From a virus (Duplodnaviria; Heunggongvirae; Uroviricota; Caudoviricetes): a DNA stretch of 4,425 nucleotides. Position numbers and translations under genes: made by a program. Within the stretch, counting starts at the first letter, position 1, and each line of letters starts with the position of its first letter. Shown one piece after another: positions 2,956-3,942 of the stretch. Below the pieces are notes generated by a model. That model was not told the origin of the DNA and searched no databases. It was given only the letters and a program-made list of their open reading frames with translations. The DNA is taken from IMG/VR virus record IMGVR_UViG_2667527959_000007; one strand, given 5' to 3'.

Positions 2956-3171
2956 TTAAGCGGCTTTGTGTTCCGGCGGGAACACGTCATCAAGACTTAC
3001 TTTTGCGCCTAACTTGTTTAGGCACTCAACAAGAGCACGGCATGTTTTAAGGTCTGGGAAGCGACGACCAGATTCCCAATGTCCGATAGCTCCCTGTGTG
3101 CATCCAACTGCCTTAGCAAGTGTTGTTTGAGAGATATTCAGTGACTCTCGATATTTTCGTAGGTTGCTCAT
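2956..3171 (-). CDS. cro: Cro-like repressor (helix-turn-helix, Cro/C1 type)
   Basis: 71-aa product MSNLRKYRESLNISQTTLAKAVGCTQGAIGHWESGRRFPDLKTCRALVECLNKLGAKVSLDDVFPPEHKAA. ATG at 3171..3169 preceded by GGAGGG. First gene downstream of the PR-like promoter, divergent from cI. Confidence 0.8.
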   Translation of the reverse strand: MSNLRKYRESLNISQTTLAKAVGCTQGAIGHWESGRRFPDLKTCRALVECLNKLGAKVSLDDVFPPEHKAA

Positions 3172-3197
3172 ATGCCCTCCATAGTAACCATGAAACA

Positions 3198-3226
3198 ATA
3201 ATACGATATGTACTTTTAGAATGCAA
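3198..3226 (-). promoter_or_regulatory. PR-like promoter driving cro, cII and the replication genes
   Basis: Minus strand: -35 TTGCAT (3226..3221), 17-bp spacer, -10 TATTAT (3203..3198). Predicted start near 3191, giving a short leader to the cro ribosome-binding site. Confidence 0.6.
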
Positions 3227-3273
3227 GCAAAAAATACATCTTGTGCATGGATGGTTTTAGTACAGAGCGTAAT
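3200..3273. promoter_or_regulatory. OR operator cluster: three candidate 15-bp sites (consensus ARTAC-N5-GTAYT)
   Basis: Sites at 3200-3214 (AATACGATATGTACT, overlapping PR -10 and spacer), 3233-3247 (AATACATCTTGTGCA, weaker) and 3259-3273 (AGTACAGAGCGTAAT, just upstream of the cI start, the OR3/PRM position). Centre-to-centre spacing is 33 and 26 bp. PRM itself could not be placed confidently. Confidence 0.4.
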
Positions 3274-3282
3274 AATAAGGGT

Positions 3283-3942
3283 ATGAAAATGAAATGGTAT
3301 GAACTGGCTAGATCCAGAATGAAAGAGCTCGGCATAACTCAAGAGAAGTTAGCTGAAGAGCTTGGTATGACGCAGGGTGGAATTGGTCACTGGTTGCGCG
3401 GATCTCGTCATCCATCTCTTGACGAGATTGGTGTGGTGTTTAAATACCTTGGTATTGATAACGTCTCATTCAACCACGACGGTACATTTTCACCTGTTGG
3501 CGAATACTCATCTGCCCCCGTTAAAAAACAATATGAGTACCCTGTTTTTTCTCATGTTCAGGCCGGGATGTTCTCGCCTGAGCTTAGAACCTTTACCAAA
3601 GGTGATGCGGAGAGATGGGTCAGCACAACCAAAAAAGCCAGTGATTGTGCGTTCTGGCTTGAAGTTGAAGGTAATTCCATGACCGCGCCAACAGGATCCA
3701 AGCCAAGCTTTCCTGACGGGATGTTAATTCTCGTTGACCCTGAGCAGGCTGTTGAGCCAGGTGATTTCTGCATAGCCAGACTTGGTGGTGACGAGTTTAC
3801 CTTCAAGAAACTGATCAGGGATAGCGGTCAGGTGTTCCTACAGCCACTAAACCCGCAATATCCAATGATTCCATGCAATGATAGCTGTTCCGTAGTAGGG
3901 AAAGTTATCGCCAGCCAGTGGCCTGAAGAGACATTTAGTTAA
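3283..3942 (+). CDS. cI: cI-type repressor with a C-terminal LexA-like self-cleaving (S24) domain
   Basis: C-terminal about 140 aa ([38 protein letters not shown]...GNSMTAP...FTFKKL...WPEETFS) contains the Ala-Gly cleavage site and the Ser and Lys catalytic dyad, and is nearly identical to lambda cI by recall. The N-terminal about 80 aa is a different helix-turn-helix domain. Start ATG at 3283 or 3289 (AAGGG at 3277-3281 favours 3289); the TTG at 3241 is rejected. Stop TAA at 3940-3942. Confidence 0.9.

Follow-up and report, generated by a model that had tools for sequence, protein, structure and literature searches.

The question raised by this locus is whether the two repressors of a lambdoid switch, Cro and cI, carry related DNA-binding domains that read the same operators, and how such a likeness came about. 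The window, i.e. the whole stretch of 4,425 bases that was analysed, is the early control region of a lambdoid phage. The initial annotation had quoted two similar helix-turn-helix (HTH) strings from positions 2956-3520, a range that comprises cro, the intergenic control region and the cI N-terminal domain; both strings are present, the first (SQTTLAKAVGCTQGAIGHWESGRR) as residues 14-37 of Cro and the second, of 24 residues, as residues 19-42 of cI. Very probably the segment is the specificity cassette of a lambdoid switch, in which Cro and cI carry anciently paralogous HTH_3 domains with nearly the same recognition helices and with the same predicted operator dyads. The features of the window are listed in Table 1.

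Table 1. Features of the 4,425-base window and the basis on which they were placed
Feature	Position	Strand	Basis or remark
DnaB-type helicase gene	59-1510	minus	
O-type replication protein gene	1485-2384	minus	
63-aa ORF between cII and O, overlapping the O start	2377-2568	minus	
cro, 71 aa plus stop	2956-3171	minus	ORF; start set by family alignment
Cro recognition helix TQGAIGHWES, residues 25-34, positions H0-H9	3070-3099	minus	translation; model helix 26-34
cro Shine-Dalgarno GGAGGG	3175-3180	minus	
PR (putative): -35 TTGCAT (3226-3221), 17-nt spacer, -10 TATTAT (3203-3198)	3198-3226	minus	read from sequence
OR1 candidate AATAC-gatat-GTACT	3200-3214		overlaps PR spacer and -10; AP005153 putative operator coincides
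OR2 candidate AATAC-atctt-GTGCA, weaker dyad	3233-3247		33 bp from OR1, conserved; AP005153 putative operator
OR3 candidate AGTAC-agagc-GTAAT	3259-3273		just upstream of cI start; 26 bp from OR2 as in related loci; AP005153 putative operator
cI	3283-3942	plus	CDS
cI N-terminal DNA-binding domain and linker, residues 1-83	3283-3531	plus	Pfam HTH_3, model
cI recognition helix, residues 30-39	3370-3399	plus	translation; model helix 31-39
cI C-terminal S24 autocleavage/oligomerisation domain	3532-3942	plus	Pfam Peptidase_S24
Bidirectional terminator-like hairpin, 3' of cI	3973-3994	both	
OL3 candidate AATAC-aaagc-GTTAT	4022-4036		half-site scan; weak dyad
OL2 candidate AGAAC-atttt-GTATT	4055-4069		half-site scan
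PL promoter TTGACT, 17 nt, TACTAT	4068-4096	plus	promoter scan
OL1 candidate AGTAC-aaatc-GTACT, perfect dyad, AGTACAAATCGTACT	4080-4094		in PL spacer
nutL boxB hairpin	4152-4166	plus-strand side, beyond PL	
Lambda-type N gene, start only in window	4339 onward	plus	

The window was compared with phage lambda by blastn. Homology was found at 2834-2949 (97%, nutR/tR1 region), at 3532-3936 (94% DNA identity, cI C-terminal domain) and at 4102-4425 (82%, nutL and N), and no lambda match at 2950-3531 or 4001-4101. The non-lambda DNA thus corresponds exactly to cro, OR and the cI N-terminal domain, plus OL. Judged by these matches, the immunity region is a mosaic of the classic immunity-cassette type. 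The cro-cI segment is 99.4-99.7% identical at the DNA level to that of phages vB_EcoP-683R2, vB_EcoP-720R6, Dewey and Louie, and about 93% identical to that of many Shiga-toxin (Stx) phages (Nil2, 2851 and the PA series, and the Stx1-converting phage and Stx2-II of strain Morioka V526). These phages share the same cro-OR-cI and show no substantive difference from the window, which is a further copy of their immunity type. In the matching records cI and cro are already annotated, and AP005153 adds putative operators and promoters.

The cII gene lies on the minus strand (Pfam Phage_CII, E 9e-45), and the 63-aa ORF next to it corresponds to a hypothetical protein in ON470594, where a 53-aa version is annotated. 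The replication module combines the O-type initiator with a DnaB-type helicase that replaces lambda P. Direct repeats, GTACCAGCAGATTACCAGCAAATTACC-like units recognised by eye at about 1890-1995 inside the O gene, are probably the iterons of ori. The N-terminus of the N protein (MDAQTRRRERRAEKQAQWKAANPLLVGVS) is the same as in lambda N. The interval between cI and PL is without rexA and rexB and contains the terminator-like hairpin instead.

The extent of cro in the window is that of the 'putative cro' in AP005153. The family alignment places the Cro start codon at 3171-3169, and not within the longer, mechanically called ORF of 128 aa. Cro matches the Pfam HTH_3 profile over nearly its full length (47.8 bits, E 1.4e-12, gathering threshold 23), but scores only 15.8 bits against P22_Cro (PF14549), below the cut-off of 30.2, and has no Pfam match to the lambda Cro family PF09048. 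By these profiles Cro is of the cI-like sequence class, like 434 Cro, and stands outside the P22_Cro and lambda Cro families. Its recognition helix is at least 90% conserved among 47 members of the Cro family, which keep the motif GCTQGAIGH[WY]ESGRR.PDL. The lineage is marked by a conserved helix 4 of its own and an LDDVFPP..AA tail. By tblastn it was recovered from 181 records of phages of Escherichia, Salmonella, Pseudomonas, Vibrio, Pasteurella, Mannheimia and Aeromonas; Salmonella phages L and epsilon34, VT1-Sakai and mEp213 are among them. On the strength of these alignments, Cro is a member of a separate and widespread lineage with the LDDVFPP tail, and this lineage is partnered with two different cI N-terminal subfamilies.

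The cI protein likewise matches HTH_3 over nearly the full length of the profile (42.2 bits, E 8.3e-11, gathering threshold 23); residues G32, H36 and W37 of its recognition helix are at least 90% conserved among 38 family members. Its start MKMKW fits the MKxxW N-termini of the family, which favour position 3283 over two annotated alternatives: the start at 3247 (AP005153), with which the CDS would overlap OR2 and OR3, and the start at 3289 (ON470594), which was set aside. A TAATAA sequence (3270-3275) precedes the ATG at 3283 by 7-8 nt, and the interval contains no obvious Shine-Dalgarno sequence; our guess is that the maintenance transcript is leaderless as in lambda and starts at the cI ATG downstream of this element. 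In Salmonella phage L (L017, MW013502, 720-1424) the annotated repressor CDS covers two of the three OR dyads, and, judged by the family N-terminus (MKTPW...), the start may lie 42 nt downstream of the annotated one.

The C-terminal part of cI is that of an S24 repressor (Peptidase_S24, PF00717, E 8.9e-29), with about 98% protein identity to the lambda cI domain (8gmu, 3bdn) and 93.8% DNA identity to lambda 37233-37637 (blastn). An Ala-Gly cleavage site and a Ser/Lys dyad are present; the motifs VQAGMF, EGNSM and FKKL align residue for residue with lambda cI. The protein is itself a mosaic: residues 84-219 are lambda-like, the N-terminal domain is without lambda DNA homology, and the recombination junction lies near 3531/3532, within the linker and shortly before the Ala-Gly autocleavage site. 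The cI of the window probably falls into 'Clade I' of the Stx-phage repressors, with 61% identity to lambda cI (preprint 10.1101/2021.11.24.469858).

The recognition helices of Cro and cI share the sequence T-Q-G-A/G-I-G-H-W, and the likeness of the two domains extends far beyond this motif of eight residues. In an ungapped BLASTP alignment 22 of 62 positions are identical (35%, E 4e-11). The Smith-Waterman score of the pair is 95, compared with a mean of 21.6 (sd 3.9) for shuffled sequences (z 18.7), and none of 2000 shuffles reached 95. The same test gave z values of 28.8 for the Cro/repressor pair of 434, 8.3 for that of P22 and 0.7 for that of lambda. Of these reference sequences, the four that were scanned (434 Cro, the N-terminal domain of 434 cI, P22 Cro and lambda Cro) were assigned by Pfam as expected.

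The two domains had been called paralogous, which holds in the ancient sense and fails in the sense of a recent duplication. At the scale of a library of 1.84 billion proteins, the cI domain matches its own Cro with 30.5 bits (E 0.04), and 834 foreign clusters (at 50% identity) reach E <= 0.001 when the library is searched exhaustively by HMMER with the cI N-terminal domain, so that hundreds of foreign repressors are closer to cI than Cro is. A word-index search with this domain alone had returned 12 near-identical fragments, and the exhaustive search was used for the alignment instead. Most of the single-domain HMMER matches carry [TS][QK]G[AG][IVL][GSA]HW[LM].G.R; TQG[GA]IGHW is the signature of a very large repressor family and not special to the phage of the window. 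An HMM built from foreign cI N-terminal domains scored Cro with 49.6 bits, compared with 24.9 for P22 c2, 23.4 for lambda cI and 16.4 for 434 cI, which places the Cro and cI families as sister subfamilies within HTH_3. According to these searches, the Cro and cI domains are ancient paralogs in sister subfamilies and not the products of a recent duplication. This agrees with the literature, in which cro and cI are regarded as products of an ancient duplication (PMC6649833). The statement that Cro and cI of lambda have unrelated folds does not agree with it: the two are described as distant paralogs, with loss of the ancestral helical fold in lambda Cro (PMC6649833).

A different history would be a displacement, in which cro was recently replaced by a duplicate of the phage's own cI DNA-binding domain. 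Exactly such an event has been described for phage 434 (PMC6649833), and it would fit the direct and significant similarity of Cro to its own cI and the membership of Cro in HTH_3, like 434 Cro (50.2 bits), rather than in the P22 or lambda Cro families. A recent copy is nevertheless very improbable here. The pair is only 35% identical, its z value is well below that of the 434 pair, and its own Cro is far from being the nearest relative of the cI domain (E 0.04, compared with 834 foreign clusters at E 0.001 or better). In the opposite direction, several foreign repressors outscore the own cI against Cro (Smith-Waterman scores of up to 117 vs 95), and Cro belongs to the coherent LDDVFPP lineage, which is paired with two cI subfamilies. 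A displacement may, however, have taken place long ago, at the base of the LDDVFPP lineage.

AlphaFold models were obtained for Cro (pLDDT 90; helices 4-10, 15-22, 26-34, 41-54 and 60-63), using an alignment of 47 family members, and for the cI N-terminal domain (pLDDT 85; helices 5-16, 20-27, 31-39 and 46-56, then a short hairpin and a disordered linker), using 38 distant relatives rather than close cI homologs. Helix 2, the turn and helix 3 are in register in the two models. Foldseek searches of the PDB returned the same neighbours for both, among them the P22 c2 N-terminal domain, the 434 repressor, the lambda repressor and restriction-modification controller proteins; P22 c2 was among the best structural matches, with TM-scores of 0.72-0.79 and 0.61-0.76 for the two models. 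The Cro model also superposes on a solved protein of E. coli, 28tn (TM 0.87-0.94, rmsd about 1.1 A, 48% identity). The initial annotation had expected both proteins to be of the all-helical Cro/C1 type as in 434 and P22, and it had named folds that differ as an outcome that would speak against this. The HTH_3 assignments and the shared structural matches bear the expectation out, and the four-helix cores of the two models agree. Because the cI model ends in a short hairpin and the Cro model in a fifth helix, the match is confined to that core. The models thus support a lambda-repressor-like helical fold for Cro and the cI N-terminal domain alike.

Operators were sought by a half-site pattern scan, in which the best fit was judged against AGTAC-N5-GTACT. 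Six candidate operators of the type A[A/G/T]TAC-N5-GTA[C/T]T were found in the window, three in OR and three in OL, and the three best dyads (0-1 mismatch) all lie within these two control regions. The spacings run parallel, with 33 and 26 bp in OR and 33 and 25 bp in OL. AP005153 likewise marks three putative operators at PL; it is not colinear with the window downstream of cI, so this is a regional match only. At up to 3 mismatches the pattern is not enriched in the window (18 found, 15.8 expected from shuffles), and the operator calls consequently rest on position, spacing and conservation. A search for inverted repeats in OR with a 6-nt seed found nothing. We infer PR, which the simple consensus scan missed since its -35 matches the consensus at only 3 of 6 positions; related loci have a TTGC...17 nt...TATTAT arrangement at the corresponding position. 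PRM was not reported by the consensus promoter scan of the window. Overall, cI and cro diverge around a tripartite OR, a matching tripartite OL lies at PL, and the layout is found in at least 20 related loci.

Whether the two proteins would read the same half-site, as had been predicted, was addressed by comparison of 22 loci, i.e. the window and 21 related ones; several of these share near-identical cassettes and are thus not independent. A MAFFT alignment served to assign the helix classes, and operator sites were picked by the pattern derived from the window. At every one of the 22 loci, Cro and the adjoining divergent cI belong to one recognition-helix class, which changes together with the operator. 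Helices of the form ..G/S...H[W/Y] occur with NNTAC-N5-GTANN sites (14 loci), and helices of the form ..SR..NY with NNCAC-N5-GTGNN sites (8 loci), which have the lambda-like half-site ATCAC. Within the H[W/Y] class, Gln at H1 goes with A at position 1 of the half-site, and Lys, Thr or Arg at H1 with [T/G]ATAC. The three operator sites are 26 and 33 bp apart almost everywhere. This lends good comparative support to the prediction of a common half-site. Two pairings, Gln H1 with A+2 and Ala H3 with A+5, are in line with the 'evolutionary code' published for Cro proteins (PMC6649833), and it has been noted that the specificity of a Cro may resemble that of its own phage's cI more than that of Cro orthologs (PMC6649833). 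The only mildly new element of the present case is that the Cro helix, the cI helix and the half-site all covary cleanly.

Some of the loci (L006, L019-L023 and L025) combine the same Cro lineage with the other cI N-terminal subfamily (GW.SQSRIGNYE). The operators of these loci have a lambda-like form (ATCAC-N5-GTGAT), and their recognition helices resemble those of lambda Cro and cI only in a Q-S.

Identity between Cro and its own cI is uneven along the domain. It peaks in helix 2 with the turn and in the recognition helix (41-64%; 59-64% for the recognition helix itself) and is 11-28% elsewhere (helix 1, 11-28%; helix 4, 21-28%). Between the two classes, Cro proteins share 46% identity in the loop and helix 4 but only 32% in the recognition helix, and in the Asn class non-contact residues of the turn (GW..) also match the partner cI. 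All of this would be expected if gene conversion from the opposite-strand cI repeatedly overwrote the HTH segment of Cro while its scaffold was kept, a mechanism that is nevertheless very unlikely, even more so than a recent displacement, as identity to the own partner barely exceeds that to cI proteins of the same class (59 vs 50%; 64 vs 60%) and selection for a shared operator gives the same pattern without copying. We also consider, as a tentative proposal that is rather doubtful at present, that Cro proteins of the LDDVFPP lineage, together with the repressors they are paired with, make up a natural 'specificity code' series for HTH_3 switches. Here His H6 would go with T and Asn H6 plus Arg H3 with C at the third base of the half-site, and Gln H1 with A at its first base, and Cro would be re-matched to its partner by repeated selection or by HTH gene conversion.

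Under the preferred reading of an ancient paralogous pair in a specificity cassette, the switch may work as follows. The cassette would consist of divergent cI and Cro, with one set of three operators (OR) in the interval between the two and a second set of three (OL) at PL. Dimers of Cro and of cI would both read 15-bp A[A/G/T]TAC-N5-GTA[C/T]T dyads, or 17 bp with one flanking base per side, and, as in lambda, a base pair would lie on the symmetry axis. In the usual scheme, PR would be shut by cI at OR1 and OR2, and the transcription of cI by Cro at OR3. Likely contacts are those of Gln H1 with the first A of the half-site and of His H6 near T/A-C. The recognition helices of Cro and cI would have stayed alike because both must fit the same operators. 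We only infer operator binding, the order of operator preference and the residue-base contacts from the comparisons above; no biochemical or binding study of this repressor/Cro pair or immunity type was found in the literature.

Among the known systems, the window pair resembles that of 434 (3CRO, 2OR1, 1R69) in that both partners are all-helical HTH_3 proteins with detectable similarity and a shared helix motif (QQSI in 434, TQG.IGHW in the window). Cro and repressor of 434 share three OR and three OL operators (PMC6649833), as is predicted for the window pair. The 434 pair is the closer one, and its Cro is taken to be a copy of the cI domain that displaced the original cro, whereas the Cro of the window belongs to a lineage of its own. 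The operators of 434 are 14 bp long, whereas the candidates in the window are odd-length 5-N5-5 dyads. In P22 (2R1J, 3JXB, 1ADR, 1RZS) the helical repressor fold is likewise present in both the c2 N-terminal domain and Cro, but the Pfam family of P22 Cro is P22_Cro (97.9 bits) rather than HTH_3. Lambda shares with the window the switch architecture, the cI C-terminal domain, the nutR region, nutL and N, and operators of similar length with a central base pair; it differs in the specificity cassette, i.e. the cI N-terminal domain, cro, OR and OL.

PDB entry 28tn ('lambda repressor-like protein from Escherichia coli', released 2026-03-11) is a member of the Cro lineage, 48-50% identical to the Cro of the window and with a DDVFPP tail. 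Its recognition helix reads TAGAICHYEN, and from this difference its operator specificity probably differs from that of the window Cro. The protein is closest to the Cro of Enterobacter phage ENT1, a phage with [T/G]ATAC-type operators.

Phages 434, P22 and N15 are known to have all-helical Cro proteins in which the recognition helix is repressor-like (PMC6649833), the competition of paralogous Cro and cI for the same operators is established for lambdoid phages, and the arrangement in the window is already known. As the region is 93-99.7% identical to that of deposited phages with annotated cI and cro, the case is an ordinary one, of little importance beyond correct annotation. Since the immunity type occurs in Shiga-toxin phages, the operator consensus and the specificity residues could help to predict homo-immune Stx prophages. 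The 22 loci form a small natural series for testing rules of HTH_3 recognition or gene conversion between cro and cI. If the tentative 'specificity code' series is true, it would extend the Cro 'evolutionary code' to cI-type domains and show concerted evolution of both arms of the switch.
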